From sequence record MN850588.1: 38,200 nucleotides of DNA. One strand, given 5' to 3'. The position numbers and the translations under genes are program-made. Position 1 is the first letter of the stretch, and every line of letters begins with the position of its first letter. Under the pieces are notes generated by a model, which was given only the letters and a program-made list of their open reading frames with translations, made no database searches and was not told the DNA's origin. Positions 12,852 to 33,531 of this stretch are shown here, piece by piece. Source of the stretch: Escherichia phage sortregn.

Positions 12852-12991
12852 ATTGCCCTCCGTTGTGTGGAAATCAATATTACATAACGTTACCATGATG
12901 TAAAGCCCAACCGTGATAATAATTGACTTTACAGTGGTAACAAGGGCGGGTAACATTGCGACCAGTAACGCAACCATGAGGTGATTAAACA
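12852..12991. promoter_or_regulatory. divergent promoter/operator region with GGTAAC repeats
   Basis: 140-bp intergenic region between divergent operons; GGTAAC at 12936-41 and 12949-54, AGTAAC at 12964-69, GTTACC at 12888-93; sigma70-like hexamers TTGACT 12923-28 and GATAAT 12914-19. Confidence 0.45.
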
Positions 12992-14656
12992 GTGATTGAC
13001 TACGACGACGACAACCAGCCAGATCGCAGCGAGCAGGAGATCAGGGAGATGATCCGCCCAGAGCCGACGCCTCTCGAACCCGTCCCGGACTGGATGGGCC
13101 AGACCCCGGAGCCGACGGACGAGGAGGTGGCCCGGCAGATGGCGATCGAGGCTGAACGCGAAGCGGCAGAGCTGGAGTATTACCGATTCAACGACGACAA
13201 CCCGGACGATCACGCCTACGAGGTCGCGGTGAAGGATAACGAGGTGACGCTGGTCAAGCGCTCCGAAATGACCGAGGAGGAGCGGGCGGAGGCTTACCTG
13301 GCGAAGCAGCGCGAGAAGGACCGCAAGGCGATCGCCGACCTGCTGGCAGACGAGCCGGACCCCCTGCTGGAGGAACTGAACAAGGGCAACGAGATCAAGC
13401 CCGTTAATTACGTGATCCAGAACCTGATCCCGGAGCGCTCCGTGGGCTTCCTGGTCGGCGAGTCCGGCGCTAAGAAAACCTTTGCGGCCCTCCATATGGC
13501 CCTGTGCGTGGCGCGTGGCGTTCACTTCGGCGGCTTGCCAGTACGACAGGGATCCGTGATGTACTTCGCGCCGGAGGATGCGAACGGCGTCCGTGAGCGT
13601 TACGCGGGCTGGAAGTACACTCAGAACAAGAACGAGAACTTGCCTAATTTTTGGGTACTGGGCCAACAGGTCCCACTCCACCGCGAGGATCTTCTCCGCA
13701 AGTTCGGCGCGAGGATCAAGGACTCCGCATTTTTCCAGGCGAACCCCCTCTCCCTGATCGTGATCGATACCTACAGCGCCAACTCCGCCGGGCAGAAGGT
13801 CGGACAGACGCCAGTCAAGAAGGACGGGAAGATCGCGGAATGGGTAGGCGGGCGCGACTTCGACGAGAACGACAATAACGTGGCGGCGATCCTCATGAAG
13901 AACGCGGCAGACCTGGCGGACATGCTGGAGTGTGCCGTGATGATCATCCACCACACCGGGAAGGACACGGAGCGCGGCGGGCGCGGCGCGTCGGCTCTCA
14001 AGGCTAACGCAGGTTTTGAGGTCCTCGTGAAGAAATGCGCGAAGGACCGGGAGCTTTTCATCATTGAGCACTCGAAGGCGAAAGGCTGTGCGCTGTTACC
14101 GCCGCGAGCCATGCGCACGAAGGCGGCGAAACTCCCGCCGGACCTGGTGAAGATGAAGCGCGACGCGCTGGCCCGCATGACCGGACTCGACAACGAGGCG
14201 AAGAACAACCCGGCAGCGTGGGAGATCGGCGACAACCTGGGGACGCTGGTCGTCGTGAACAAGGTCGAGCCAGTCCCGACCGATAAGGCCGAGGAGAAGG
14301 ACGCGGGCGAGGAGAAAGGTCGCACCAAGCAGGAGGAACACGCGCTCCAGCTTTTGGCCTACGTGGTCGAGTACAACCACGATCGCGCCAGCAAGAACTA
14401 CAGGACGCCGAAACTCACAAAGGCGGCGCTCCGTGAGTGGGCGAAGAACTTCGCGGACCCGTCGCTGGATAAGCATCAATTCGCCCGCGCGTTCAAGTAC
14501 GCCACCGAAAAAGCGATGGTGATCAAAATGGCCGGGGATCAGACGCTAACCGCATCAACGGAAGCGCCCGCACTCCTGGGAGGGATCCGCGAACAGCAGC
14601 CACGATCCACGGACTGGAAACCAACCTCCGGCGGAGGTGATCTTGATGACTTTTGA
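12992..14656 (+). CDS. RecA-like replicative ATPase/helicase (AAA_25-type, RepA/DnaB-like)
   Basis: 554 aa; Walker A GESGAKKT, Walker B IVIDTYS, IIHHTGK motif; GTG start with GAGGTGA SD. Confidence 0.65.
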   Translation: MIDYDDDNQPDRSEQEIREMIRPEPTPLEPVPDWMGQTPEPTDEEVARQMAIEAEREAAELEYYRFNDDNPDDHAYEVAVKDNEVTLVKRSEMTEEERAEAYLAKQREKDRKAIADLLADEPDPLLEELNKGNEIKPVNYVIQNLIPERSVGFLVGESGAKKTFAALHMALCVARGVHFGGLPVRQGSVMYFAPEDANGVRERYAGWKYTQNKNENLPNFWVLGQQVPLHREDLLRKFGARIKDSAFFQANPLSLIVIDTYSANSAGQKVGQTPVKKDGKIAEWVGGRDFDENDNNVAAILMKNAADLADMLECAVMIIHHTGKDTERGGRGASALKANAGFEVLVKKCAKDRELFIIEHSKAKGCALLPPRAMRTKAAKLPPDLVKMKRDALARMTGLDNEAKNNPAAWEIGDNLGTLVVVNKVEPVPTDKAEEKDAGEEKGRTKQEEHALQLLAYVVEYNHDRASKNYRTPKLTKAALREWAKNFADPSLDKHQFARAFKYATEKAMVIKMAGDQTLTASTEAPALLGGIREQQPRSTDWKPTSGGGDLDDF

Positions 14657-14911
14657 CCGGGGCGTGTGTTGGTAACGAGTAACACCCCCCCTTATAGGGG
14701 GGGATGTAACGTGTTACCGCAACCCACAAGGCCGAAAACATAGTTTTTTATGTGTACTGTTACCGACAAGCGACCGTAATCAAATCAATCATTTATGTGT
14801 GATTCGGTAACGGGGAAAGTAGCGAATCGGTCGCGGGGAAATCGGGGGGTAAAAATCGGGGGTGACCCCCGACAAAATCCCCGCCAAATAATCATTGATA
14901 AGTGATGCGAA
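14657..14911. promoter_or_regulatory. repeat-rich non-coding region, candidate replication origin/regulatory region
   Basis: 255 bp non-coding after replicative ATPase gene: C7-TTATA-G7 hairpin 14685-14703, six (G/A/T)GTAAC sites, TTATGTGT twice, three AAATCGGGG-like repeats, GGGGG-TGA-CCCCC palindrome. Confidence 0.4.
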
Positions 14912-15100: not shown

Positions 15101-15328
15101 GGCCCGTCACGACGACGAGGAAACGAGGAGATGATGATGAATGACGAACACGGCAAGAAATCCAACGTAGCGGACGTCTCGCATATGTATGTAGGCCCGA
15201 ACCAACGCGCCTCACTGCTGGAGAAGGCGTTCGAGATGTTCAGAGCGGCGGCGTCGTGATCCTGGACTCGTCCGTGGTCGAATGGTCCGAAGTGGAGGCA
15301 TACCGCCCGGCAAAGTGAGGGCCGGGAC

Positions 15329-15619: not shown

Positions 15620-16258
15620 ATGTCAATATTCACTTTCATTAATCGCAAACTGGGCCGTTTCAAGACGTGCCGGACCTGCAAGGATAAGCACCCTTGCGGC
15701 TTCGGGGAATGGCCTTCGATGTTCTTCATGTGCGACAAGTGCCAGAACAAGACGCTGGAGGAGCTATTCGAACCGGGACGCCTTAACCGCCTGACGATGG
15801 TCCACCAGACGGAGGAACAGATGGCAGAGTCCCGCCGCCGTCTGGGGCCGTTGATCGACAGCCTGGTGAGCCAGCAGCGCCAGAGCAAACAAACCGCAGC
15901 CCAGACCCAGGCAGCGAAGGCCGCGCAGTATCGCGACCCGCGATCGGTGGCAATGGCCCGCCAGATGGCGCACGACCCACGCCCGGCGGCTCGTGGTACG
16001 CAGCAGGATCCGATCTCGGACCCGATGCACCTCCTCAACCCGTTAAACCCGCTCTCCCCAGTGTCTCCGCTCAACCCGCTGAACGACTGGGACGACAGCA
16101 GCCACCGCCACCACGTCGCGCCAGCCATGAGCGAGCCGACGGAATGCCACACCACCAGCCACTCCTCCGGCTATGAGTCCAGCAGCAGCGACTACAGCAG
16201 CAGCAGCTACGACAGCGGGAGCGACTCCTCCAGCTACTCGTCCGGGGGCTGTGACTGA
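15620..16258 (+). CDS. zinc-ribbon protein with Pro/Leu repeats and Ser/Tyr/Asp-rich C-terminal tail
   Basis: CRTCKDK...CDKCQNK four-cysteine ribbon; LNPLNPLSPVSPLNPLN; tail SSSSDYSSSSYDSGSDSSSYSS encoded by short AGC repeats. Confidence 0.55.
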   Translation: MSIFTFINRKLGRFKTCRTCKDKHPCGFGEWPSMFFMCDKCQNKTLEELFEPGRLNRLTMVHQTEEQMAESRRRLGPLIDSLVSQQRQSKQTAAQTQAAKAAQYRDPRSVAMARQMAHDPRPAARGTQQDPISDPMHLLNPLNPLSPVSPLNPLNDWDDSSHRHHVAPAMSEPTECHTTSHSSGYESSSSDYSSSSYDSGSDSSSYSSGGCD

Positions 16259-16554
16259 TGGCGATGGACAAGGACCGCAGGGTGGGCCGCACGAAGGCGG
16301 AAGCGCAACTCCTGAAACTCAAGCTGTACAAGGGGCCGGAGTGCAAGGTCCACGGCGGGAACTTCACCCGGTACACGTCAAACGGCGCTTGTGTGCTGTG
16401 CCGTAAGCTGGAGGCCGACACGACGAAGGGCAAGAGCCGGGGCTATATCGCCAAGAAGCGCGACACGCTGGCGTTTAATCACCCGGTTTCACCCTGGCCC
16501 ATAACCGCCGAGAATATGCACCTGTGCCCGGATCTCTCGTTCAAGCGAACTTGA
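16258..16554 (+). CDS. zinc-ribbon protein
   Basis: 98 aa; CKVHGG...CVLCRK four-cysteine motif; ATG overlaps previous stop. Confidence 0.5.
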   Translation: MAMDKDRRVGRTKAEAQLLKLKLYKGPECKVHGGNFTRYTSNGACVLCRKLEADTTKGKSRGYIAKKRDTLAFNHPVSPWPITAENMHLCPDLSFKRT

Positions 16555-16630
16555 TCACGCTTCCGTAACCGCCGATAATCCTCCGCGTAACCCTGTGACA
16601 CTCAGGCGATAAACGGAGGATTTTTTCATC
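16501..16630 (+). promoter_or_regulatory. candidate late-operon control region upstream of terS
   Basis: Direct repeat ATAACCGCCGAGAAT (16501) / GTAACCGCCGATAAT (16565), third CGTAACCC at 16586, GATAAT hexamer 16574-79. Confidence 0.35.
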
Positions 16631-17185
16631 ATGGCAAACGAACAGAACCTTAAGAAGGGGAACCGCTTCTCCAAAGAGAACCAGCCGGAGCGACGCGGCA
16701 GGGCGAAGCAGAACCGGACGTTACTCCTCGAAGCACTCCGCAAGGTTCGGATCAAGGAGGCCACCGGGCGCAAGGTCGAGGACATCGATCCAAACACTGG
16801 CGAGGTGAAGGTGAACAGCGAAACGGGCGAGCCGATCATGGTGGACGAGTTCGTGGAGGTCCCGCTCACGGAGGACATGTTCATCCAGCGAGCGATCCAG
16901 ATGGCCCTCGTAGACGGTTCCATGATGCGCGACATCATGAGCCGATTAATCCCCTACACCAAGCCGACCAGCCCGACCTATTGCTTTGAACTGACCGGAT
17001 CCACCCCGTCCGAGCGTATCACCGAGATCGAGGACCTGGTGGCAGCGGGAGAGCTTCCGTTCGACGCGGCGGAGTCTATGGTGAAGATGATCCGCCACGG
17101 CGCGGAAGTGTTCGAAATGTCCGAAATGGTCAAACGACTGGACGCACTGGAGGCCCGACTGAATGGCGAAGCCAAAGACGAATAA
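16631..17185 (+). CDS. terminase small subunit (P22 gp3-like)
   Basis: N-terminal KKGNRF motif as in P22 gp3; GGAGGA SD; upstream of TerL. Confidence 0.55.
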   Translation: MANEQNLKKGNRFSKENQPERRGRAKQNRTLLLEALRKVRIKEATGRKVEDIDPNTGEVKVNSETGEPIMVDEFVEVPLTEDMFIQRAIQMALVDGSMMRDIMSRLIPYTKPTSPTYCFELTGSTPSERITEIEDLVAAGELPFDAAESMVKMIRHGAEVFEMSEMVKRLDALEARLNGEAKDE

Positions 17186-17597
17186 ACTCCCGCCGGACAC
17201 TTACGGCAGACTGGAGGCGCTGGGCCTGAAATGGTTCACCGCCTCCCCTTACCCTTATTTCATCGTGTGCTTTGACCCGCAGGACGAGGAGATGGTGGCG
17301 AAGCTGGGCGAATGCTTCCCGGACTGGAACCGCGAGAAGCCGATCCAGCAAGGCGTCGCCATTGAGTACCACGCCGCCGACGTTAAGCTGGTGTTCGTAG
17401 GCGTCCGCCGGGGCCAATACTGGCGGACGACCATCGTCCACGAGATCGTCCACGTTAAGAACTACATCGGCGACACGCTGGGGATCGAGTGGGACGTGAA
17501 CAACGACGAGCCGGAGGCTTACTTCGTGGGCTGGCTGTTTAACATGATGGAGCAAACCTTCCAGGATCTGGGCTATGGCAAAAAATCGAAAGGATAA
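17163..17597 (+). CDS. hypothetical protein with HExxH motif (possible zincin-like)
   Basis: 144 aa ORF between TerS and TerL; HEIVH followed by acidic EPEAYF. Confidence 0.45.
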   Translation: MAKPKTNKLPPDTYGRLEALGLKWFTASPYPYFIVCFDPQDEEMVAKLGECFPDWNREKPIQQGVAIEYHAADVKLVFVGVRRGQYWRTTIVHEIVHVKNYIGDTLGIEWDVNNDEPEAYFVGWLFNMMEQTFQDLGYGKKSKG

Positions 17598-19197
17598 CCT
17601 CGCACGACTGGCCCGACTGGAGGGCCGGGCGTCTTACGTGGCCCGCGATGGTGGCCTGGTGTATGGCGTTTATGAGCCGGACGGGACCAGCGCCAAGCAC
17701 TGCTACAACATGAAGAAGGTTAACGGCGAATGGGTGTACACCTCCGAGCCGCACGACATCACGATCGCGGAGTGTCTGACCCCGATCCTCCTCCGTCCGA
17801 AGCGCTTTATTATCCTGGTCGGCGGGCGTGGCTCCGGGAAGTCGCTCACCGTCGGCGGGATCATCGACGCAGACGCCCACGACGAGGCGGCGAGCGCGAT
17901 GTGTCTCCGCGAATACCAGGCATCGATCAAGGATTCAGTCCACCCGCTCCTCGTCAACCGGATCGAGGAGTACGGTCTGGACGGCTTCGAGATCCTGGAG
18001 AAGGAGATCCGCCACACCAACGGCGCGATCATCCGTTTTAAGGGGATGGCGAGGGACCCAGCGGGCGTAAAATCCGCGTTCGGCTTCCGTCGCTTCTGGG
18101 GCGAGGAGGCGCAGACCTTTTCCGCCGAGTCTCTCCGCCAGTTAACGCCAACGATGCGCGAAACGGGCGGTATTATGCTGTTCACGGCGAACCCCGGCTC
18201 CAGTGAGGACGCATTCAGTCAGAGATTCCTGATCCCATTCTGGGAGGATCTCCAGCGGGACGGCATCTACGAGGACGATCTCCACCTGATAATCCGCGTC
18301 AACTGGTCGGATAACCCCTGGTTCCCCCCAGAGCTTCGATCGGAGATGGAGTTCGACCGCCAGACGCTTTCAAAGGCGCTATTCGATCACGTATGGGAAG
18401 GCCATTTTAATGACAGTGTGCCGGATGCCATTATCCCGGCGGAATGGTTCGACGCGGCGATCGACGCCCACAAGAAACTCGGATTCAAGCCGACCGGGAT
18501 CAGGATCGGCGCACTCGACCCGGCGGACGTCGGGGCGGATAACAAGGCTTACGGCGAGCGTTACGGCTCCGTGGTCACGCATATGGAGGAATGGTTCGAA
18601 GGTGACGCGAACGACTCCGTAGACAAGGCGATCAACACGGCGAAGGACCACGGGATCGAGGCGTTCGTGTGGGACCGCGCCGGACTGGGCGCTGGCTTGC
18701 GCCGCCAGGTCACGGAGGCTTACGCCGGGACGAAGGTCCTCGTAGACGGTTACAACGCCGGGGACGGCGTGAAGCACCCTGACAACCCTGTGGAGCTTGA
18801 TCACTGGCTGAACAACAAGGCCAGCGGGAACAATATCCAGAAGAACGCCGACGCGTTCGCGAACCGTGGCTCCCAGGACATCTACCTGTTACGGAAGCGC
18901 TTCGAAAGGACTTACGAGGCCGTGGTGAAGGGCGTATATCACAACCCGGACGAACTGATCGCGCTGGACAGCGAGGGGATCGGGGAGCATATGACCAAAC
19001 TCAGGGCGGAAGTGTGCCGTATTCCGCGCATTTACAACACCAACGGGAAATTTGCTAGGATGCCTAAGCCGCAGATGCGGACCAAACTCAAAATGAAGTC
19101 GCCGGGGATGGCTGACGTGCTTTGCATGTTGATGCAGCCGCCGGAGACGGTGAAAGACGAAGATTATTCCGGCTATAATGTGCCGAGCAACCGCTAA
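17575..19197 (+). CDS. terminase large subunit
   Basis: 540 aa; Walker A ILVGGRGSGKS, acidic nuclease-type C-terminal half; precedes portal. Confidence 0.85.
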   Translation: MAKNRKDNLARLARLEGRASYVARDGGLVYGVYEPDGTSAKHCYNMKKVNGEWVYTSEPHDITIAECLTPILLRPKRFIILVGGRGSGKSLTVGGIIDADAHDEAASAMCLREYQASIKDSVHPLLVNRIEEYGLDGFEILEKEIRHTNGAIIRFKGMARDPAGVKSAFGFRRFWGEEAQTFSAESLRQLTPTMRETGGIMLFTANPGSSEDAFSQRFLIPFWEDLQRDGIYEDDLHLIIRVNWSDNPWFPPELRSEMEFDRQTLSKALFDHVWEGHFNDSVPDAIIPAEWFDAAIDAHKKLGFKPTGIRIGALDPADVGADNKAYGERYGSVVTHMEEWFEGDANDSVDKAINTAKDHGIEAFVWDRAGLGAGLRRQVTEAYAGTKVLVDGYNAGDGVKHPDNPVELDHWLNNKASGNNIQKNADAFANRGSQDIYLLRKRFERTYEAVVKGVYHNPDELIALDSEGIGEHMTKLRAEVCRIPRIYNTNGKFARMPKPQMRTKLKMKSPGMADVLCMLMQPPETVKDEDYSGYNVPSNR

Positions 19198-19214
19198 ACC
19201 CCACGGAGAACATC

Positions 19215-21449
19215 ATGGCACGAGTTAAAAAATCGGTGCAGAACTGGCAGGAATGCGCCCGGAAGAAATTAAGCGCCGCGATCGGGGCGGAGGACACCAG
19301 CCGCAAGAAGATGATCGAAACGGCGCGATTTGTCCGCATTCCTGGCGCTCAGTGGGAAGGCTCCACGAACTCCGGCTTTGCGATGGATGATGAACGTTTC
19401 CAGAAATACCCGCGATTTGAGCTAAACAAGGTCGGGCGCGAGGTGGATCGCATCATTTCAGACTACCGCCTGAACCGCGTAAACGTCACGTTCCGCCCGA
19501 AGGACACCCAGGCCTCCGAAGAACTGGCGGACAAGCTGAACGGCAAGTTTCGCGCAGACTTCAACGAGTCGAACGGCTCCGAAGCCGTGGACAACACCTA
19601 CGAGGACGGCGTGACGGGCGGAATGGGCGCTTTCCGCATGGACACCGAACTGGAGGACGAGTTCGACCCGGACAACGAACAGCGTCACATTGTTTTTTAC
19701 CCGATCTATGATCCGGCCTCGTGCCTGTTTATCGATCAGGACTCCAAGATGTACGATCGCAGTGATGCTATGTGGATGGCGGAGCTATTCAGCATGACCC
19801 CGGACAAGTACGAGGAGCGCTATCCCGACGCCCTCGCCCCGGAGGACCTGATGGCGATCGATACCGGGAAACAATTCGACTGGGCCACGAAGGACGCGAT
19901 CTATCTGGCGCGTTACTACGAGGTGAAGATCGAGGACACCACCGTGATCTCCTACAAGAACCCGTTAACCGGGGAGGTGGAGGTCTACGACGAGGACGAG
20001 ATCGAGCAGATCGAGGACGAACTGGAGGCCGGAGGCTGGGAACGCCAGAAGGATCGCAAGGTCAAGCGCCGCAAGGTCTATTGCGGACTTATGACTGGTG
20101 GCGAATGGCTGGAGGAGCCGAAGCTGATCCCGTTCGAGTGGATCCCGATCTTCGTGTTCAACGCCCGCCGCTCGTTCATCGACAACATGGAACGCGTAAG
20201 CGGTCACGCGACCCAGGCCCTCGACGCGCAACGTCTGGAAAACCTGATCGTGTCCATGATGGCGGACCAGGCCGCGCAGTCTGGCGGCGATAACATCCCG
20301 ATCATGGACATTGATATGATTCCCGGAGCGCTGGCTGACGCCTGGGGGGAACGTAACACGAAGCGCCCGGCATACTTGCCCGCTAAATCGCTCCGTAACG
20401 CCGCTGGTGAGGTTGTGCAGCAAGCCGGGCCACTGGGTTACACGCCATCGACGCCGCTCTCTCCGGCGCTGGCAGCGGTCCTACAGTACACCGGGAGCAC
20501 TATCCAGCAGATCGTCGGCTCGTCCCAGGTGGAGGCGTTACCGTCGAACCTGGCGACCGAAACCGTGGAGGCCATTTTCGCCCGTATGGACGGACAGGGC
20601 GCTCTCTACATGGACAACCTGGGGAAAACGCTCCGCCACTGTGGGCGCGTGTACCTCAGCGCGGCCCGCAAGGTCTACGGCTCGGAGAATTACGTCCGCG
20701 TGAAGAACGAGGACGGGACCGACGATCTCGTGTTAATGACCGGGAAAGTGATCGATCGTGACACGGACGAGGCGATCGCGATTAACGACCTCAAGCGCGG
20801 GAAATATGAGGTCGAGGCCGACGTGGGCGAGTCCTCCCAGACGAAGCGCGTCGCAACCGTTCGCAGCCTGACGAATCTCCTCCAGTCCATGCAGCCTGGC
20901 GACCCGAACGCCGCCGTAGTGATGGGCCTGATCATCATGAACATGGACGGCGAAGGCTTGCAGGACTTCAAGGAATACAGCCGCCGCCAGCTTCTCCTGA
21001 ATGGCATCGTGAAGCCGCAGACGGACGAGGAGAAAGCGATGGTAGCCGAGGCCCAGCAAGCCGCCCAGCAGCAGCCGGACGCGCAGATGGTAGCCGCTCA
21101 GGGCGTAGCGCAGCAGGGACAGGCCGCAGTGATGGAGCAGGAGAACAAGCGTTTAGAACTGACGCTCAAGGCGCAGAGCACCGCGTCCGACGGTCAACTG
21201 AAAAACGCGCAGACGGTCAAGACGATGGCAGAGGCGGCGGCAATCCCGCAGGATCAGCTATTGAGCGCGATCGCCGTTCTCCAGAAGTACGTCTCCCAGC
21301 AGAACAGCGACGCCCACAAACAGGCGGATCTGTTCCTCAAGGCTCAGGGACAGGGCCACACCCAGCGCGAGGACCAGATGGCCCGCGAGATGGCAGAGCG
21401 CCAGGCATCGCAGAGCGCCGATCGTCAACTGGGATTAGCTGGCCTGTAA
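19215..21449 (+). CDS. portal protein (P22 gp1-like, Q/A-rich helical C-terminus)
   Basis: 744 aa, follows TerL, GGAGAA SD, intrinsic terminator after stop. Confidence 0.8.
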   Translation: MARVKKSVQNWQECARKKLSAAIGAEDTSRKKMIETARFVRIPGAQWEGSTNSGFAMDDERFQKYPRFELNKVGREVDRIISDYRLNRVNVTFRPKDTQASEELADKLNGKFRADFNESNGSEAVDNTYEDGVTGGMGAFRMDTELEDEFDPDNEQRHIVFYPIYDPASCLFIDQDSKMYDRSDAMWMAELFSMTPDKYEERYPDALAPEDLMAIDTGKQFDWATKDAIYLARYYEVKIEDTTVISYKNPLTGEVEVYDEDEIEQIEDELEAGGWERQKDRKVKRRKVYCGLMTGGEWLEEPKLIPFEWIPIFVFNARRSFIDNMERVSGHATQALDAQRLENLIVSMMADQAAQSGGDNIPIMDIDMIPGALADAWGERNTKRPAYLPAKSLRNAAGEVVQQAGPLGYTPSTPLSPALAAVLQYTGSTIQQIVGSSQVEALPSNLATETVEAIFARMDGQGALYMDNLGKTLRHCGRVYLSAARKVYGSENYVRVKNEDGTDDLVLMTGKVIDRDTDEAIAINDLKRGKYEVEADVGESSQTKRVATVRSLTNLLQSMQPGDPNAAVVMGLIIMNMDGEGLQDFKEYSRRQLLLNGIVKPQTDEEKAMVAEAQQAAQQQPDAQMVAAQGVAQQGQAAVMEQENKRLELTLKAQSTASDGQLKNAQTVKTMAEAAAIPQDQLLSAIAVLQKYVSQQNSDAHKQADLFLKAQGQGHTQREDQMAREMAERQASQSADRQLGLAGL

Positions 21450-21479
21450 CTGGTCGGACCGCACGAAAAGCTAAAGACA

Positions 21480-21505
21480 AGCCCGCTTCGGCGGGCTATT
21501 CTTTG
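21480..21505 (+). terminator. intrinsic terminator after portal gene
   Basis: AGCCCGC-TTCG-GCGGGCT hairpin followed by ATTCTTTG. Confidence 0.6.
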
Positions 21506-21508
21506 CCT

Positions 21509-21519
21509 CGACACATCAC
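21509..21519 (+). repeat. CGACACATCAC element copy 1 (after portal terminator)
   Basis: 11-mer identical to 25041-25051; 25 nt upstream of ATG 21544. Confidence 0.7.
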
Positions 21520-21543
21520 TAAACCATTACAAAGGAGTTTTGA

Positions 21544-21765
21544 ATGGCCCGATCACTGATAGCAGTCAAAGACGCCGCCGGGGAAAAGTACCTCCTCCCG
21601 GTCCGTAACATCGTGAGCGTGACGGAGTTCCCGGACAACGAGCGCCGCGTGGAGGTCAAGGTCCGCGAGCCGATCAATGGCCCAGACGGGCGGATCTGTG
21701 GGTACGAGTTAAACCTGTATTACTCGCCAATGTCGATCGCACAATTCGAAGGGGCTTACGCGTGA
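21544..21765 (+). CDS. hypothetical protein
   Basis: 73 aa ORF, AAGGAG SD, first of four coupled small genes. Confidence 0.45.
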   Translation: MARSLIAVKDAAGEKYLLPVRNIVSVTEFPDNERRVEVKVREPINGPDGRICGYELNLYYSPMSIAQFEGAYA

Positions 21766-21932
21766 AACGCTACAAATGCACCGTAGGCGACAAGCGCGGG
21801 GCGTTCGGCGACTGTATGGAGCAGGACAAGGACGGGGACTGGATGCGCGTCTCCGACCATAATCGACACATTCAGGCACTGGAGCGCCAGATCGCGGCGC
21901 TAAAGGCCAAAACCAGAGAGACGAAACAATGA
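21762..21932 (+). CDS. possible small protein (56 aa, GTG start)
   Basis: Own reading; overlaps both neighbours (GTGA and ATGA); below ORF-track cutoff. Confidence 0.3.
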   Translation: MKRYKCTVGDKRGAFGDCMEQDKDGDWMRVSDHNRHIQALERQIAALKAKTRETKQ

Positions 21933-22297
21933 AAACGACCTACAACCTCGACCAGATGGCCCTCTTTTCTGCGATCGCCGCAGCGGTAGGAAAACAGGCG
22001 CCAGGGCTTCCGGCGGATAACCGCGCTAACGTGGTGATCGAGGCCGCAAACATGATCGTAGCGGCCTATGCGCTGACCGATGCCGAATACATGGCGAAGA
22101 AGGCAGAAGCGCCGATCGCCGTTGACCTCCAGCCGACGGCGGAACAGGTGGAGGCCGGGATCGCCTCGCTGTGGGACACCATCCCCGGCGCGATGGATCA
22201 GCTATGCCAGGACGTGGCAGAGGAGGAGCAGGGCGATCTATTCTCCGACGCTGTTACTTTCGTGTGGCAAGCCATGATCGGGAAGCGTCCACAATGA
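21929..22297 (+). CDS. hypothetical protein
   Basis: 122 aa ORF, ATGA coupling. Confidence 0.45.
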   Translation: MKTTYNLDQMALFSAIAAAVGKQAPGLPADNRANVVIEAANMIVAAYALTDAEYMAKKAEAPIAVDLQPTAEQVEAGIASLWDTIPGAMDQLCQDVAEEEQGDLFSDAVTFVWQAMIGKRPQ

Positions 22298-22563
22298 GCG
22301 TAATCCATCACTACCTCGCCTTTCCGGGCGGGGGAGTGTCCGCCCTCCGCAAGCTGGGCCAGACGCTCGAAGAACGCCACGACCTCGACGGCATACTGGA
22401 GGGGCCGGAGGAGGGGGAGCGCTGGCGCATCGTAGCCAGTGAGATGATCCACGCCGCAGAAGGGCCAGACGTCGCGCTCTACTACGTGATCCCCGCTTCG
22501 GTTCCACCGCACCACGAGGCGCTCTATCTCTCGCAAGCCCTCGTAAAAGCCGCCACGAAATAA
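22294..22563 (+). CDS. hypothetical protein
   Basis: Internal ATG 22294 of ORF 22171..22563 overlapping previous stop; 89 aa. Confidence 0.4.
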   Translation: MSVIHHYLAFPGGGVSALRKLGQTLEERHDLDGILEGPEEGERWRIVASEMIHAAEGPDVALYYVIPASVPPHHEALYLSQALVKAATK

Positions 22564-22572
22564 CCCGCCACC

Positions 22573-22583
22573 CTGGGGGGATC
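22573..22583 (+). repeat. CTGGGGGGATC 11-mer copy (intergenic, part of hairpin)
   Basis: Exact match 10 nt after stop of the 89-aa gene. Confidence 0.8.
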
Positions 22584-22612
22584 GTTAATCGCGATCTCCC
22601 CTATTTGCATTT
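22575..22612 (+). terminator. hairpin with T-rich tail (possible terminator/attenuator)
   Basis: GGGGGGATCG-TTAATCG-CGATCTCCCC 10-bp stem with one G-T pair, followed by TATTTGCATTTT. Confidence 0.4.
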
Positions 22613-22690
22613 TCCCGCCGCCCTCGCTTAAACTTACTCCCGCCACCGATGGGCGAATACATCGCGTATGCAACAAAACGAGGATCTACG

Positions 22691-23689
22691 ATGAAATTCC
22701 GTGAAATGTTTTTGAAATATTATGCACCGTACACCGAGAACGACGGCGGCGCGGCGGCATATGAAGCTATGCAGAACGGCAACTCTCAGGAAGCCACGGA
22801 CGACACCCCGGACACTGACCCGAACGAGCAGGACCACGACAACGACAACGACGTGGACACCGATCTGGACGAGCAGGATCTGGACGAGAACGGCAAGCCG
22901 AAGGCGAAGGAAGGCGGCGAGAACGCGGAAACCGAGGACGAGGAGGAGGAGTTCCTGTTCGACGGTCAACCAGTTACCGCAGCGCCTACGGACGAAGATG
23001 ATCAGGAAGGCGACAGCGACCTGGTGAAACATCTCCGCGCCCAACTCCGCGAGCAGAAAAAACAATTCAAGACCTCCACCCAGGCGGCGCAGGAGCGCAA
23101 AGAGATTCCCGCAGATATGCCCCGCAAGCCAGAGATGGGCGACGAGGGGATCGACTGGGACCCGGAGAAGTACGCCGAAGCGCTGGACAAGTGGACCGAG
23201 GACAAGGCCGCTTATCAGCAGCGCGAGCAGGAGATGGCAGCGAAGCGCGAAGCGTTCGGGAAGAAATTCTCCGAAGGCCAGCAGCGCTACCAGACCGAAC
23301 GCGCTAAGGCGATCAAGAAGTATGCGGGCTTTGAGAAGGCCGAAGCCGCGATCGCAGAACTGCCGGAGCCGTTACAGGCGGGCCTGATGATCAACAGTAA
23401 GAACCCGGCGGCGCTGGTCATGGTACTGGGACGTAACGCTGATTTGCGGAAGCAAGTCGAGGATGCCTATAATAGCGACCATATCGCGCTGGGCTACCTA
23501 ATCCGCGATATTGAGGCCCGCGCAGGTTCCAAGCCGAAGGCGAAACAGAATCTCAATTCTACGCCAGAAGTTAAGGGCCAGAACGGAGTCGCAAACGTCG
23601 GACAACTGGAAGCACTTCGCAAACGAGCGGAAGCGACCGGGGATTATACGGAATACTTCGCAGCCAAGAACAAACGGGCTGAAAAGTAA
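22691..23689 (+). CDS. scaffolding protein (P22 gp8-like)
   Basis: ORF 22649..23689 with start moved to ATG 22691 after ACGAGGA; highly acidic N-terminus, C-terminal helices resemble P22 gp8 coat-binding region; precedes coat gene. Confidence 0.7.
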   Translation: MKFREMFLKYYAPYTENDGGAAAYEAMQNGNSQEATDDTPDTDPNEQDHDNDNDVDTDLDEQDLDENGKPKAKEGGENAETEDEEEEFLFDGQPVTAAPTDEDDQEGDSDLVKHLRAQLREQKKQFKTSTQAAQERKEIPADMPRKPEMGDEGIDWDPEKYAEALDKWTEDKAAYQQREQEMAAKREAFGKKFSEGQQRYQTERAKAIKKYAGFEKAEAAIAELPEPLQAGLMINSKNPAALVMVLGRNADLRKQVEDAYNSDHIALGYLIRDIEARAGSKPKAKQNLNSTPEVKGQNGVANVGQLEALRKRAEATGDYTEYFAAKNKRAEK

Positions 23690-23719
23690 AACTAACACTC
23701 TATCGGTGGAGATGGATAA

Positions 23720-24976
23720 ATGGCTAACCAGTTAGCGAAGGATCTCGAAATTGCATTCGAGAATTATGTGGCAGGCTTTGACGCGTCTTGCGTAGTATCG
23801 CAGAACGCAGCCAAATTCCGCCCGGATGATACCGCGATGCAACGCGCCGGGGACGTGATCTATCGTCCGCAGCACTACCACGCGGATATTTTGGAAGGTC
23901 TGGATCTGACTGGCAAGGCCGGGACCGATATCGTCCAGCGCCTGGTCCCGTCGGCGTTCAAAGAACCTCAGAACGTGCTCTATAAGCTGGACGCTCGCGA
24001 AATGCGCGACCCAGAGCACAAGAAAGAAATGGGCCGAGCAGCGGGCCAACGTATCGCAGCGAAGATCGACTCCGATCTGATCAACGCCGCAGCACGTTAC
24101 GCGACGCACGTCGTCCCGGTAGGCACTAACACGACCGGAACCCTGGGCCGCGACCTGTGGAACGCAGCGGCGGGCGTGGATGCCGAAATGACCGCTATCG
24201 GGATCCCGGTAGGCGTGAACCGTCGTTCCTTCTGGAACCCCTTCTCCTACAAAGACCTTGCGGGCGAACTGGGCGGACGCCAGTACGTCGCGGGCGTGAC
24301 CCTCTCCGCATACGAGAAGGCGCAGATCCCGGATGTGGCGAGCTTCGACTCCTACAAGACGGACATCTCTCCGCGTCTGGGCGCTGGCCCGACTGGAGCG
24401 ATCACCCTGACCGCAGCCCCGGCGCACAAAGTCCAGTCTAAGAACGCGAACGACATCCCGGTGGATAACCGCGAAGGCGTGATCGATGTTTCTGCTGGTC
24501 ACGGTCTGAAGGCTGGCGACGCGTTCACTATCGCGGGCGTTCACTCCGTCCACATGATCAGCAAGGACACGACTGATCAGCTTCAAGTGTTCCGTGTGCT
24601 GGCAGTGTCCGACAACAACGTAACGATCACCCCGCAGATCCTCCCGCCGGATAACGCGGATCTGCCGTCTCGTCCTTACTCCAACGTGGACGCGAACGCA
24701 GCCTCCGGCGCTGAACTGACCGTTATCAACAAGAACGCGGCGAACGCTAACTTGCTGTGGGCGGACGGCTCCGTGGAGCTTATGCTGGGTAATCTGGCGT
24801 TCCCGACTGGTCAAGGCCCGCAGGTTATGCGCGCTACCGCGAAGAACGGCGCGACGCTGATCATGTCCTACAGCTTCGACCACATCGCGGGCGTCACCAC
24901 TTGCCGCTTTACCACGCTTTACGGCGTTTCCGTCCTCGTGCCGGAATATGTCGGCCTGGTACTGCCGAACCAGTAA
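23720..24976 (+). CDS. major capsid (coat) protein, P22 gp5-like
   Basis: 418 aa; several collinear matches to P22 coat protein (MQRAGDVIYRP, LLWADGSVELM, C-terminal YGVSVLVPEYVGLVLP); strong terminator after stop. Confidence 0.85.
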   Translation: MANQLAKDLEIAFENYVAGFDASCVVSQNAAKFRPDDTAMQRAGDVIYRPQHYHADILEGLDLTGKAGTDIVQRLVPSAFKEPQNVLYKLDAREMRDPEHKKEMGRAAGQRIAAKIDSDLINAAARYATHVVPVGTNTTGTLGRDLWNAAAGVDAEMTAIGIPVGVNRRSFWNPFSYKDLAGELGGRQYVAGVTLSAYEKAQIPDVASFDSYKTDISPRLGAGPTGAITLTAAPAHKVQSKNANDIPVDNREGVIDVSAGHGLKAGDAFTIAGVHSVHMISKDTTDQLQVFRVLAVSDNNVTITPQILPPDNADLPSRPYSNVDANAASGAELTVINKNAANANLLWADGSVELMLGNLAFPTGQGPQVMRATAKNGATLIMSYSFDHIAGVTTCRFTTLYGVSVLVPEYVGLVLPNQ

Positions 24977-24996
24977 GACGCGACGCGCAGCACAAA

Positions 24997-25022
24997 GGGG
25001 AGCCATTGGCTCCTCTTTTTTT
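24997..25022 (+). terminator. strong intrinsic terminator after coat gene
   Basis: GGAGCC-ATTG-GCTCC hairpin followed by T-rich run. Confidence 0.75.
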
Positions 25023-25040
25023 ATGGCTTATACTGTTCCC

Positions 25041-25051
25041 CGACACATCAC
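25041..25051 (+). repeat. CGACACATCAC element copy 2 (after coat terminator)
   Basis: 11-mer identical to 21509-21519; 20 nt upstream of ATG 25071. Confidence 0.7.
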
Positions 25052-25070
25052 CCTATCAAGAGGATCTACC

Positions 25071-25589
25071 ATGTCACGCAATAAGACCGCGATCGCCGTA
25101 GCTATGACCATGATTTACACCCGCCCCGCTATCATCGCCGGGGAAAATATCAAAGGTCTGGAAGTCCTGACCCGCGACCACACGGACGGCCCCTACGCCC
25201 GCGCCTCGTTCCCGGATGAAGAAGCCGCCGAGCGTCTGGAGTCTGGCTTCTGGGTGGATCATCCGGTCAAACTCTCCACGCTGGACAAGGCGATCGCCGA
25301 AGCCGCTCAGAAGGAAGCGGAGCAGGACAAAAAGGACGCCGACAACCAGAAAGCCGAGCAGGTGAAGAAGGAGCAGGACGAGAAGGTGGAAGATAAGGCC
25401 CCAGAATCGACCGCTACGGCCTCCGAGCAGAAAGACGACCCGAAGGCCACCGAAGCGGAAAAAGCCGCAGAGAGCGGCGCAGAGGCTCAGGAATCCACCC
25501 AGGAAGCGAAGGCCGACGAATCCAAGCCGAAAGACGGCGAGAAGGTAGACGGCGCGAAAGTTCCGACTGATAAGAAGGCGAAGAAATAA
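25071..25589 (+). CDS. hypothetical protein with Lys/Glu/Ala/Asp-rich disordered tail
   Basis: Internal ATG 25071 of ORF 24948..25589 after AAGAGGA; roughly 75 aa ordered N-terminus then charged low-complexity tail. Confidence 0.5.
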   Translation: MSRNKTAIAVAMTMIYTRPAIIAGENIKGLEVLTRDHTDGPYARASFPDEEAAERLESGFWVDHPVKLSTLDKAIAEAAQKEAEQDKKDADNQKAEQVKKEQDEKVEDKAPESTATASEQKDDPKATEAEKAAESGAEAQESTQEAKADESKPKDGEKVDGAKVPTDKKAKK

Positions 25590-25591
25590 TT

Positions 25592-26047
25592 ATGGCGACC
25601 ATGCAGAAGATCCAGATCGTGAACCTGGCGTTACGCCGGGGCGGGATCGCGTCGTCTGCTGTTCTCATGCAACCAGATCCCCAGCAGTTAGCCGACGCGC
25701 TGGGCGATCTGGAGTCCCTTATGGCTTCGGTGATCAAGGACGGCGTGGATCTGCCGTACAACTTCACCACCAACCCGGACGGCATTCCCGACGGGAACGA
25801 GGACTCCGGTCTGGAACTTTGGACGCTGGAGGCGCTGGGCCTCAAGCTGGCACAAAGGATCCTGATCGATATGCAGCGCGACCTAACGCCGCAACAAAAC
25901 GCGGTCTTGCGCGAACAGTGGGACGTGGTGAAAGTGGCATTCTACAAAGTGCCATCACTCAAACAGCGTAACGATATGCCAACCGGGGAAGGAAATAATC
26001 CTTTCTGGGCTGACGATCGTTTCTACTATGACGGGACGGCGAAATGA
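25592..26047 (+). CDS. head-tail adaptor (P22 gp4-like)
   Basis: 151 aa; IVNLALRRGGIAS and DMPTGEGNNPF resemble P22 gp4; position after coat. Confidence 0.55.
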   Translation: MATMQKIQIVNLALRRGGIASSAVLMQPDPQQLADALGDLESLMASVIKDGVDLPYNFTTNPDGIPDGNEDSGLELWTLEALGLKLAQRILIDMQRDLTPQQNAVLREQWDVVKVAFYKVPSLKQRNDMPTGEGNNPFWADDRFYYDGTAK

Positions 26048-27480
26048 GGAACCCAGAGCGCGGGCAGGAGATTAACATCCCGTTACTGTACGGTGACGGG
26101 CGCAGTAATAAGACGCTGGACTGGACGACGCGACTCCCGGAGAACATGCTGGCGGTCGCCCGACAGGTCAAAGGCGGCAACGGCTACATGCGGATCATGC
26201 CGGGGATCGATAAGGTCGCCGACGTGGACGGGATCAGCCGTGGCTCGGAATGGAACACGGTCAAAATGGGACCTTCCCGCGTAATGGGTGGCAAGCTGTA
26301 CCTCTTAGGCTCGCCGCTGGCGGACGTGTCCGGCGTGGACCGTACTCCTATGGCGCATAGCCGCGACAGGATCGGCATTGTGACCGATAACCGCCTGTTA
26401 ATGGTCGGCTATGACGGGACTGTGACGAACTTTTCCAACTGGACGGGGGAGGACGCTCCGATCTACTCGTGGGGCGACATTAACGACGTTTGCCACCTCC
26501 GCCAGCGCTTCATCTTCTCCACGAAGGGGACGGACACCTTTTGGATCTCCGACCTGGAGGACGAGACGAAGCCGGACAAGATCGCCCCGGCGTATCGCGC
26601 TGAATCCATGCCGGACGGCATCGTGGCGATCCGCTCGTGGCATGACTATGTTGTGTGCTTCGGTAGCGCCTCGATCGAGTTCTTCGGCCTGACCGGGGAC
26701 GACCAGAACGTCTACGCGAACCAGCCCTCCTACACCGTCCAGGCCGGAACGCTGGGACGTGAAACCGTTTGCGCCTATCTGGACACGTTCGCGTTTATTA
26801 CGTCCCAATTCTCCGGGGAGTACACGATCGCCATCATGCAGCCCGGCGCGGCTCCGACGGAGATCGCCAGCGCGGAAGTTAAGAAGATGCTCGCCGGGTA
26901 CACCGTGGAGCAGCTACAGGCGGCGCGACTGGAGTCACTCAGCTATGAAACGCATAAATTGCTTATTGTCCACCTACCGGACAAAACGCTGGTTTACGAT
27001 CACCCCGTTAGCCAGGCCCAGGGCGTCCCGGTCTGGTCATTCCTCAAGACGGGGATCCTCTCGCTTAAGCCGTGGCGGGCGATTGACGTCATGAACGAGG
27101 GCAACCGGATCACCGTCGGCGACAAGACGGGGAAATGGCTCGGAGCGCTGAACAATACCCACTCCGCGCAGTACGGCGAGGACCAGGAGATCGTCCTGTA
27201 CACGCCGATCCTGTGGGCTGAAAATGCGATCCTCGCTGACTTTAGGATCGACGCTTCGACCGGGGGCGGCTCTACCACTTCCCGGATCTGGCTCTCCGCC
27301 ACCGAGGACGGGATCAACTACGGGCAGGAGCGAACGATCGCTTATAACACGCCTTACCGCTGGCTACAGAACGTTATCTTGCCCGTTGTGGGCCGCGTCC
27401 GTTCCGCCATCGGCTTTAAACTTCGCACCGTTGGCGCGACCCCGGCGACTCTCTCGCGGGCGCGTGTCCGTGTGACCTGA
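26044..27480 (+). CDS. tail hub protein (P22 gp10-like)
   Basis: 478 aa, ATGA overlap with gp4-like gene, size and position as P22 gp10. Confidence 0.55.
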   Translation: MRNPERGQEINIPLLYGDGRSNKTLDWTTRLPENMLAVARQVKGGNGYMRIMPGIDKVADVDGISRGSEWNTVKMGPSRVMGGKLYLLGSPLADVSGVDRTPMAHSRDRIGIVTDNRLLMVGYDGTVTNFSNWTGEDAPIYSWGDINDVCHLRQRFIFSTKGTDTFWISDLEDETKPDKIAPAYRAESMPDGIVAIRSWHDYVVCFGSASIEFFGLTGDDQNVYANQPSYTVQAGTLGRETVCAYLDTFAFITSQFSGEYTIAIMQPGAAPTEIASAEVKKMLAGYTVEQLQAARLESLSYETHKLLIVHLPDKTLVYDHPVSQAQGVPVWSFLKTGILSLKPWRAIDVMNEGNRITVGDKTGKWLGALNNTHSAQYGEDQEIVLYTPILWAENAILADFRIDASTGGGSTTSRIWLSATEDGINYGQERTIAYNTPYRWLQNVILPVVGRVRSAIGFKLRTVGATPATLSRARVRVT

Positions 27481-27484
27481 TGCA

Positions 27485-27495
27485 CTGGGGGGATC
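27485..27495 (+). repeat. CTGGGGGGATC 11-mer copy (immediately 5-prime of gp26-like ATG)
   Basis: Exact match ending one base before ATG 27496. Confidence 0.85.
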
Positions 27496-28092
27496 ATGGC
27501 AGTCGTTAACACTCTACAGCAGCTTAATACGGGCATTTTGCCACCCGGTACTTCTCAGGCGTTCCGGGATTATCTGGTCCGCCTGGGATCCTTCACGCAG
27601 GAAGCCGGGGACACCGCGAACAACGCCGAGGGATCGGCGTCTGACGCCTTCACGATCGCGGAACAGCAGAGGATCCGAAACGACCAGCAGGACAACGAGA
27701 TCGACAACCTGGAGGGGCAAGTCTCCAGCCTGGCGACCCGCGTCACCGAAGCGGAGAACCAGGTGGACACGCTGGCCCAGCAGGTCGAAGCGTTCGACAG
27801 TATCGTGATCAAGAACAACGTGGACACCCTCCAGATCATGGACGGGCCTCTCTCCATCGGGACGGAGATCCGCGTGAACAACGTCAAGGTAATGGGCGGA
27901 CGTCAAACTGGCTGGACCGCGCAGACCGGGACCACGAAGAAGGGCGGGATCGACGGTTCGGCGGCGTATGCCGTCGGCGGCGCATACAGCCAGGCAGAGG
28001 TCCAGGCACTGGCGGACGGCCTGGTGGAAGCCCGGCAGGTGATCGCCGCGCTGGTGGCGCTGGCGCTCTCTCACGGCTACGCGGGGACCTGA
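27496..28092 (+). CDS. tail needle protein (P22 gp26-like coiled coil)
   Basis: 198 aa with heptad-like segment NLEGQVSSLATRVTEAENQVDTLAQQVEAF; position as gp26. Confidence 0.5.
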   Translation: MAVVNTLQQLNTGILPPGTSQAFRDYLVRLGSFTQEAGDTANNAEGSASDAFTIAEQQRIRNDQQDNEIDNLEGQVSSLATRVTEAENQVDTLAQQVEAFDSIVIKNNVDTLQIMDGPLSIGTEIRVNNVKVMGGRQTGWTAQTGTTKKGGIDGSAAYAVGGAYSQAEVQALADGLVEARQVIAALVALALSHGYAGT

Positions 28093-28094
28093 TC

Positions 28095-28496
28095 GTGGAT
28101 TATGGCGAGATGATCGAACTTGTCCCGGACTCCGGCGTGGACCTCCTCCACGCCTGGGGCCTCCCGGAGTGGCCCCGCCACGTCGAGGCAAAGTATTTTC
28201 TGTGGGAAAGATGTTGCGTGTTCGCGATCATGGCGAACGACGAAGGCGGGATCGATGGACATATGGCAATGGATCCACCCATGCGCAGACGGTCCCGCGA
28301 GGCTTGCCAGGCGTTCCTCGCACACTGGGGCCACTATGCGATCCGCGTCCCGGTATTGATGGACCACCGTCACGCCCGGAACGTCGTCCGCAAAGTCGGA
28401 TTTGTTGAAAGTCCGCCCCAGCTTGTACAATTGGCGGACGGCAGAGAGGCGGAAATTATTTTCATGAGGAGAGGACCAAATGGGCGGAGCAATTAG
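28095..28496 (+). CDS. hypothetical protein (gp14 position)
   Basis: 133 aa ORF, GTG start at 28095 or ATG at 28110. Confidence 0.4.
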   Translation: MDYGEMIELVPDSGVDLLHAWGLPEWPRHVEAKYFLWERCCVFAIMANDEGGIDGHMAMDPPMRRRSREACQAFLAHWGHYAIRVPVLMDHRHARNVVRKVGFVESPPQLVQLADGREAEIIFMRRGPNGRSN

Positions 28497-33491: not shown

Positions 33492-33496
33492 CAAAC

Positions 33497-33519
33497 GGGG
33501 GCCAGGTGGCCCCCTTCTC
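33497..33519 (+). terminator. hairpin (weak terminator/attenuator) before tailspike
   Basis: GGGGGCC-AGGT-GGCCCCC followed by TTCTC, short U-tract. Confidence 0.4.
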
Positions 33520-33531
33520 ATGGAGCGCATT

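Follow-up and report, generated by a model that had tools for sequence, protein, structure and literature searches.

Gene arrangement at the locus

We analysed the complete 38,200-nucleotide (nt) record of Escherichia phage sortregn (MN850588.1), referred to below as the window, and in particular the short region between the gene for a 98-amino-acid (aa) protein with a zinc-binding type of motif and the open reading frame (ORF) that begins at 16631 and encodes a 184-aa putative small terminase. This region holds a predicted promoter of the sigma-70 type, a potential hairpin around its predicted transcription start and a direct repeat to which an earlier note on this DNA had drawn attention (Table 1). 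Sortregn is a podovirus of the genus Murrayvirus with a genome of 38,200 bp, for which a published table gives a similarity of 97.3% to Salmonella phage Lumpael (PMC7552041). By BLAST, the Lumpael record and the window were 98-99% identical and circularly permuted relative to each other, so the ends of the window are assembly artefacts and carry no information on the physical termini.

The earlier note took the region for the start of a 19-kb late operon. A co-directional block of about 19.3 kb (16631-35925) is indeed present, but plus-strand genes upstream of it reach back to 12992, and 16631 is therefore an internal boundary rather than the beginning of a strand block. From the primase/helicase gene (12992) to 16554 all genes run in the same direction with no convincing plus-strand terminator among them, so that upstream transcripts should arrive at the 16631 ORF. 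A literature search found no transcription or termini data for Murrayvirus and its relatives.

Table 1. Positions of the elements and genes around the promoter region in the window
Feature	Position	Strand	Remarks
212-aa protein	15620..16258	+	N-terminal CxxC-x17-CxxC, Ser-rich tail
98-aa protein (sortregn_29)	16258..16554	+	C-x2-H-x12-C-x2-C motif; always encoded directly upstream of the promoter
Repeat copy 1, CCATAACCGCCGAGAAT	16499..16515	+	inside the 98-aa ORF (16258-16554), codes for P-I-T-A-E-N
-35 element TTGATC	16551..16556	+	4/6 match to TTGACA; contains the TGA stop (16552-16554) of the 98-aa gene
Repeat copy 2, CCGTAACCGCCGATAAT	16563..16579	+	-10 hexamer and the adjoining 3' part of the spacer
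-10 element GATAAT	16574..16579	+	5/6 match to TATAAT; nAnAAT invariant in 15 lineages
Outer hairpin, 5' arm, AATCCTCCG	16577..16585	+	anti-Shine-Dalgarno; shares bases with the -10 element, last base at the predicted start
Predicted transcription start	16585..16587 (~16586)	+	placed by standard sigma-70 geometry, 6-8 nt past the -10 element
Inner stem-loop CCTG-N7-CAGG	16592..16606	+	in the leader, inside the outer loop
Outer hairpin, 3' arm, CGGAGGATT	16614..16622	+	holds the Shine-Dalgarno sequence GGAGG at 16615-16619
T6 run	16621..16626	+	between the Shine-Dalgarno sequence and the ATG at 16631; could be a terminator U-tract for read-through RNA
184-aa ORF, putative small terminase	16631..17185	+	labelled by position

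Conservation of the predicted promoter

A promoter had been expected here by the earlier note, and a promoter scan located one, TTGATC-17 nt-GATAAT at 16551-16579, which matches the sigma-70 consensus at 9 of 12 positions. The GATAAT flagged in that note is its -10 element, and CGTAACCC, also singled out there, lies just beyond it at 16586-16593. A single occurrence of the pattern TTGAY-N17-19-GAYAAT was found in the window, compared with 0.12 expected.

The homologous region was collected from seven GenBank phages (Lumpael, ST231, sortsyn, KMB41, IME_EC2, Sortsne and IME279), from Skarpretter, C130_2 and STP9, from IMG/VR contigs, and from eleven more contigs retrieved through homologues of the 98-aa protein. 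Scanning of IMG/VR added few new lineages, and a metagenome scan with the invariant leader 17-mer AACCATGTAATCATGAG returned 47 loci, of which five were true relatives, all identical to variants already collected. The resulting set comprised 15 distinct lineages from the genera Murrayvirus, Sortsnevirus, Skarprettervirus and Hungariovirus.

We found that both hexamers and the distance between them were conserved throughout this set. TTGA of the -35 element was invariant and TTGAT was retained in 14 of the 15 lineages (TTGACC in L032); the spacer measured 17 nt in all lineages but C130_2 (18 nt), while its sequence and that further upstream diverged. The information content per position was 1.4-2.0 bits in the hexamers, compared with 0.65 in the spacer and 0.52 upstream. 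Within the spacer, the part GTAACCGCC belonging to repeat copy 2 was conserved solely in the Murrayvirus-like lineages. The stop codon of the 98-aa gene was TGA in every lineage and always fell within the -35 hexamer, and its position relative to the -10 element was fixed although the C-termini of the upstream proteins varied in length and sequence. The last sense codon always ended in T (ACT, GCT, CAT or GAT, for Thr, Ala, His and Asp, respectively); this T is the first base of the -35 element, and for each of the four amino acids a codon ending in C is the alternative. The ORF at 16631 is preceded, as judged from these alignments, by a conserved promoter of the kind recognized by the host sigma-70 RNA polymerase.

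A potential hairpin spanning the predicted transcription start

The two outer arms form a perfect 9-bp inverted repeat, the 5' arm of which was invariant in all Murrayvirus and Sortsnevirus lineages, with divergence in the neighbouring spacer. A run of 6-8 T residues followed the 3' arm in all lineages of these two genera and was missing from the Skarpretter and C130_2 groups. Folding gave a z-score of -3.3 for the window and of -3.2 to -5.6 for Sortsne, IME279, Skarpretter and C130_2. For the window, the minimum free energy was -23.9 kcal/mol for RNA reading through from upstream, compared with -5.6 kcal/mol for RNA beginning at the predicted start.

The accessibility of the ribosome-binding region computed in silico differed between the two RNAs. 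In all ten Murrayvirus/Sortsnevirus-type lineages, the probability of GGAGG being unpaired was 0.00 in the read-through RNA versus 0.16-0.46 in the predicted-start RNA; in four Skarpretter-type lineages, it was the start codon whose probability of being unpaired rose from 0.00-0.01 to 0.12-0.33. The complementarity between the segment 5' of the predicted start and the ribosome-binding region exceeded that of shuffled sequences in 10 of 14 lineages (p <= 0.006).

The sequences of the outer stems differed by genus. In Murrayvirus and Sortsnevirus the 5' arm is an anti-Shine-Dalgarno sequence; in Skarpretter, GGCUCAUGG and UGAU, lying in the spacer and the -10 element, pair with AUCA and CCAUGAGCC over the start codon; and in C130_2, UCGCUUCA pairs with UGAAGCGA just 5' of AAAAUG. 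The inner stem-loop was CATG-TAAT-CATG in the Skarpretter and C130_2 groups, the change from CCUG/CAGG to CAUG/CAUG amounting to one compensatory replacement of C-G by A-U. In the Murrayvirus-like lineages, spacer bases of repeat copy 2 (GCC-GAU or CCAC/CCGC) extend the pairing to the start-codon region (AUC-AUGGC or GUGG), so that the sequence of copy 2 can be explained independently of copy 1. A search of Rfam with the segment 16300-16800 returned nothing meaningful.

A possible switch for the first packaging gene

From these elements, their conservation and the computed pairing, we infer a start site, a hairpin formed in vivo, an effect of that hairpin on translation or termination and a timing of expression that together would make up the following switch. 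The promoter at 16551-16579, read by the host sigma-70 RNA polymerase, would drive the packaging and structural block from 16631. Pairing would occur between AAUCCUCCG, a segment that shares bases with the -10 element and reaches up to the predicted start (~16586), and CGGAGGAUU, in which the first gene has its Shine-Dalgarno sequence and after which comes a run of U6. Since the predicted start lies just 3' of the 5' arm, the outer hairpin would form in read-through transcripts only. RNA arriving from the replication-side genes upstream would contain both arms and have its ribosome-binding site buried, and in Murrayvirus and Sortsnevirus it may also terminate at the U-run (A-U6-8). RNA initiated at the promoter would lack the 5' arm, could not form the outer stem, would keep the small stem-loop at its 5' end, and would be translated and elongated; the expression of the first packaging gene would in this way be tied to its own promoter. 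We consider it somewhat more probable than its opposite that the region is a sigma-70 promoter placed inside a hairpin that hides a ribosome-binding site, thereby insulating the first of the packaging genes against transcription from upstream, and that the direct repeat is incidental to it.

Several observations weigh against this proposal. The entire model hinges on a start site that was placed by promoter geometry, for a promoter that matches the consensus at only 9 of 12 positions, a level of match that the promoter scan also finds elsewhere by chance, and of the five -35 bases that are conserved, three belong to the TGA stop. Even in the predicted-start RNA, the Shine-Dalgarno sequence of the window is just 26% unpaired, and the complementarity that was significant in most lineages was weak in C130_2 (p 0.15) and L031 (p 0.14) and absent in L030 (p 0.57). 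Perfect 9-bp inverted repeats with loops of up to 40 nt are not unusual in this sequence (9 observed, 8.9 expected). The invariance of the outer stem in Murrayvirus and Sortsnevirus leaves no covariation to be seen, and its 3' arm is constrained in any case as a Shine-Dalgarno sequence. RNAalifold gave no consensus structure for the MAFFT alignment of the four genera, a result attributable to the different registers of the outer stems. As a terminator, too, the hairpin is atypical, in that 28 nt lie between its arms and it was not called by the terminator scan, which considers loops of 3-8 nt.

The modest promoter match, the TGA within the -35 element, the commonness of such inverted repeats and the RNAalifold result would all suit an ordinary intergenic region in which the hexamers are kept through the context of a stop codon and a ribosome-binding site and the hairpin arises by chance. 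We regard this as quite unlikely, because the 17-nt spacing is fixed and nAnAAT is invariant across four genera despite divergent spacers and upstream C-termini, the 5' arm does not vary where the adjoining spacer does, and different genera have different stem sequences at the same position.

A rather less remote alternative is that the hairpin and U-run serve mainly as an intrinsic terminator of the upstream, replication-side unit, after which the promoter restarts transcription, the sequestration of the ribosome-binding site being a by-product. The 9-bp stem has five G-C pairs and is followed by U6, and the GC-rich core CCUCCG/CGGAGG followed by A-U6-8 was found in all Murrayvirus and Sortsnevirus lineages. 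Except for a weak one inside an ORF, no other plus-strand terminator was predicted between 12992 and 16631, and terminators overlap restart promoters elsewhere in the late block. The 28-nt interior and the missing call by the scan count against termination as the main role, however, and in the Skarpretter and C130_2 groups, which lack a U-run, the promoter is likewise nested in a hairpin, so that what all the genera have in common is a ribosome-binding site or start codon that is occluded. Moreover, termination in read-through RNA is compatible with the proposed switch and does not exclude it. On balance, termination as the principal function appears unlikely to us, though it deserves consideration.

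If the proposed switch is correct, the packaging and structural block would be run by the host sigma-70 polymerase from a conserved promoter of its own, and a hairpin formed by long transcripts alone would shield it from upstream transcription. This would concern a group of enterobacterial podoviruses with high-GC genomes of about 40 kb (Murrayvirus, Sortsnevirus, Skarprettervirus and Hungariovirus), and it would give annotators and engineers a defined promoter, with its leader, for expressing late genes.

The direct repeat upstream of the 16631 ORF

The repeat described in the earlier note is present as reported, with ATAACCGCCGAGAAT at 16501-16515 and GTAACCGCCGATAAT at 16565-16579 identical at 13 of 15 positions, and a repeat search extended it to 17 nt (15/17 identical) with a spacing of 64 nt. 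The best local alignment between the two halves of the region had a score that was equalled in 1 of 1000 shuffles, and the degenerate 15-mer with up to three mismatches had 8 matches in the window versus 2.65 expected, so that the pair exceeds naive chance. It is less exceptional by the standard of this genome, in which it is one of 9 direct repeats with 15 or more matches over 17 nt and copies 17-100 nt apart, versus 0.28 under a first-order Markov null; such repeats arise readily here, for the most part within genes. The core 8-mer ACCGCCGA occurred 8 times on both strands versus a uniform mean of 1.17, an approximately 7-fold over-representation.

Copy 1 reads in frame as ATA-ACC-GCC-GAG-AAT (I-T-A-E-N), and the genome's next-best match, located at 37574 on the minus strand within the ERF recombinase gene, reads AAG-ACC-GCC-GAT-AAT (K-T-A-D-N). 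The string common to both is therefore a favoured run of Thr-Ala-Asp/Glu-Asn codons. A further match to the motif, at 12388 on the minus strand, likewise lies in coding sequence. Two other origins or roles were considered and rejected: a larger duplication behind the repeat was ruled out by flanks of both copies that matched at chance level, and copy 1 is a poor candidate for a second promoter, its best -35 element being TTTCAC (2/6) and the promoter scan making no call there.

Among the relatives, the two copies drifted independently. Within Murrayvirus, ATA had become ATC in copy 1 of sortsyn and IME_EC2, and G had become A in copy 2 of ST231; in Sortsnevirus the pair was lost (ATCACCCCGGAGAAT versus GGTATAAACGACAAT, about 6/15). 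The Murrayvirus-like contigs L034 and L035 retained copy 2 unchanged (CAGTAACCGCCGATAAT), with copy 1 replaced by ATCAACAAGGACAAC in L034 (7/15, protein I-N-K-D-N) and by ATCGACGCGACCAAC in L035 (6/15, I-D-A-T-N). Since copy 1 was lost while copy 2 stayed fixed, we conclude that the pair is not functional as a pair. Operators or iterons would be expected to be conserved or to co-vary wherever the regulated element is kept, and the copies here did neither.

These results bear on the suggestion of the earlier note that the repeat is a regulator or antiterminator site. In such a reading the copies, perhaps together with CGTAACC at 16586, would be bound by a regulator of the late promoter, for which the upstream zinc-motif proteins are the candidates, whether as activator, repressor or Q-like antiterminator. 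The Q-binding element of phage lambda sits in the promoter spacer, and copy 2 has the same location; the 64-nt spacing is close to six helical turns, the repeat outscores local shuffles, the 98-aa zinc-motif gene always adjoins the promoter, and GTAACCGCC is kept in the Murrayvirus-like lineages while the remaining spacer varies. Nevertheless, copy 1 is absent from L034, L035 and Sortsnevirus, the copies show no co-variation, and each has an explanation of its own, copy 1 in its coding function and copy 2 in the -10 element and the pairing of GCCGAU/CCAC with the start-codon region. Neither of the two zinc-motif proteins matches Q or another regulator family, and the core oligomer is over-represented genome-wide. 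We therefore hold this reading to be highly doubtful, and the suggestion found no support in the comparison with relatives. The repeat instead looks incidental, copy 1 being coding sequence built on a favoured oligomer and copy 2 the promoter spacer plus the -10 hexamer. If so, synonymous recoding of copy 1 (e.g. to ATCACGGCAGAAAAC) should leave late expression unchanged. The case also calls for caution, in that a locally significant repeat with one coding and one non-coding copy can arise from codon usage and a -10 hexamer.

The 184-aa ORF and packaging

The 184-aa product had no match in Pfam, in a PDB sequence search or by Foldseek (E <= 0.001; model with a predicted local distance difference test score, pLDDT, of 70). 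Its gene lies two genes before that of TerL (Terminase_3, E 1.5e-31), and two Burkholderia phages have homologues, 30% identical, that carry a small terminase annotation. The designation as a putative small terminase thus derives from gene position and distant annotation. In Lumpael, 263 bp corresponding to window positions 17175-17437 are missing and the 184-aa ORF is fused to the next ORF, which accounts for the 216-aa 'putative recombinase' annotated there. Conversely, 3.3 kb of Lumpael containing about nine small genes are missing from the window at 15241/15242.

The related phage C130_2 is annotated with a 284-bp terminal repeat, the inner end of which lies about 1.4 kb upstream of the homologue of the 184-aa ORF, and the record of phage sortkaff stops 19 nt inside its homologue.

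Sites at which packaging starts (pac) are commonly found in or beside the small terminase gene, and the repeat copies could accordingly be recognition sites of the small terminase, making up a pac site where the packaging genes begin. Their location near the putative small terminase gene, their phasing by about six helical turns and the end of the sortkaff record would fit this idea. It conflicts with the loss of copy 1 even in close relatives whose 184-aa homologue is about 90% identical, and the terminal repeats annotated in C130_2 suggest defined ends elsewhere. The ends of the Lumpael and window records are arbitrary permutations, and the 184-aa protein is only putatively a small terminase, with no Pfam, PDB or fold match. 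We consider a pac site at this repeat to be extremely improbable.

The upstream zinc-motif proteins

The earlier note also proposed that two zinc-ribbon proteins encoded just upstream are late regulators by analogy with Q. The Cys motifs are present in both ORFs, but the analogy with Q found no support, as neither the 212-aa nor the 98-aa protein had a match in Pfam at E <= 0.1, the Q antiterminator families included, or in NCBIfam. In PHROGs both belong to families with no assigned function. The motif of the 98-aa protein consists of C29/H32/C45/C48, of which C29, C45 and C48 were invariant in 31 homologues. A PDB sequence search with this protein was empty, and Foldseek against PDB gave no hit at E <= 0.001, a result of little weight given the low-confidence model (pLDDT 59).

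The gene for the 98-aa protein adjoins the promoter in all four genera, and it is conceivable that the protein is a dedicated regulator of the promoter or leader that sets the timing of packaging-gene expression, an idea we hold to be very doubtful. Such a protein might bind the conserved leader stem-loop (AACC-N-UGU...) or, in Murrayvirus, GTAACCGCC. If it did, it would be the first of a novel kind of small zinc-finger regulator in phages, one linked to a switch in which the promoter lies inside a hairpin.

The end of the 212-aa ORF (16150-16258) encodes a low-complexity tail rich in Ser, Tyr and Asp and contains internal direct repeats (16157/16220 and 16180/16198); among the relatives the length of this protein ranged from 138 to 245 aa. 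In wastewater metagenomes we noted proteins of 151 aa (L033; P0026-P0041) with two tandem copies of a Y-x-G-x2-C...RYTSNG-x-C-x2-C motif, and in one such contig the gene for the 151-aa protein lies downstream of a Prim-Pol/DUF5906 primase gene.

Other sites in the window

Two further sites in the late block combine a terminator-type hairpin with sigma-70-like promoter hexamers. After the portal gene, at 21474-21502, the sequence AAGACA-AGCCCGCTTCGGCGGGC-TATTCT has a 17-nt spacer that is itself a terminator-type hairpin, and the Sortsne counterpart (L036 ~31945-31980, minus strand) has the same layout, TTTACA-GCCCGGCAAGTCCGGGC-TATTCT. After the coat gene, at 24994-25034, a strong terminator hairpin (24994-25018) overlaps the promoter-like TTGGCT-17-TATACT, and the GGCTTATACT part of this site is conserved in Sortsne (L036 ~28180-28215, minus strand). 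Insulation coupled with restart of transcription looks like a habit of this phage group, as far as such arrangements of predicted elements indicate.

An exact 11-mer, CGACACATCAC, occurs twice in the window, in two intergenic regions of the late block (21509-21519 and 25041-25051). Each copy is situated 6 nt past a -10-like hexamer, and a start codon follows at a distance of 19-25 nt. It was not conserved at the equivalent sites of Sortsne and is not present as such in the leader of the 16631 ORF.

Clusters of GGTAAC(R) and its complement at 14671-14820 and 12881-13030 are candidate origin iterons or operator sites. The 256-nt gap that follows the primase/helicase gene contains six GTAAC/GTTAC words, and the divergent region preceding that gene contains four, compared with a maximum of 3 per 150 nt in 200 simulations. 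In the same 256-nt gap, between GTAAC sites, lies a perfect C7-TTATA-G7 hairpin, CCCCCCCTTATAGGGGGGG, at 14685-14703. We also considered GTAAC as a regulatory word common to these clusters and the region upstream of the 16631 ORF and rejected it, the CGTAACC sites departing from the GGTAAC(R) consensus and two sites per 150 nt being at the null level.

Comparison with known systems

The genes e (lysozyme), soc, 49 and I-TevI of phage T4 each have a hairpin that masks the ribosome-binding site and whose 5' strand contains a late promoter (McPheeters et al. 1986; for reviews see PMC3014915 and PMC2988022). As in these cases, the 16631 ORF lies within a long co-directional unit, and the hairpin pairs the Shine-Dalgarno sequence, the start codon or both. 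The adjoining upstream promoter, too, is placed so that its transcripts, here from the predicted start, would miss the 5' strand of the hairpin, and translation is expected from the gene's own promoter only. Two properties of gating of the T4 type have their equivalent here: the ribosome-binding site is paired in upstream transcripts, as computed in silico, and the predicted start lies 3' of the 5' strand (the -10 element ending at 16579, the arm at 16585, with +1 at ~16586), a geometry that is alike in the other genera. Gating of this type also involves transcription of the gene from upstream promoters earlier in infection, with no translation; the one hint of such transcripts here is the co-directional run of genes from 12992 with no convincing terminator among them.

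There are also differences from T4. The promoter here is of the sigma-70 type with a -35 element, whereas the T4 late promoter TATAAATA is read by gp55 (gp55/gp33); the phages belong to an unrelated podovirus group with genomes of about 40 kb; the gated gene is the first packaging gene; and in two genera the hairpin carries a U-run, so that it could also terminate transcription. The T4 cases also differ from the present one in that the latter is known from sequence alone. The element would work like the T4 case and is outside the T4 late-promoter class. If the proposal is correct, a phage lineage unrelated to T4 follows the logic of its gene e and I-TevI, with a sigma-70 promoter and with the first packaging gene as the gene controlled.

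The locus also resembles the PR'/Q system of lambdoid phages, with a constitutive-looking sigma-70 promoter before the late block, a terminator-like hairpin nearby and small zinc-motif proteins encoded upstream. Lambdoid late control, however, involves a Q-binding element, a sigma-dependent pause and tR', whereas no Q-family protein was found here and the putative binding repeat was not conserved. Furthermore, unlike in the case of tR', the 5' arm at 16577-16585 lies upstream of the predicted +1, so transcripts from the promoter would not meet the terminator and would not need antitermination.

Finally, the region is comparable to the overlaps of terminators and restart promoters after the portal and coat genes of the window (21474-21502 and 24994-25034). 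At those two sites the entire hairpin is located at the promoter core or upstream of it, whereas the hairpin at 16577-16622 straddles the predicted start and includes the ribosome-binding site of the gene that follows.

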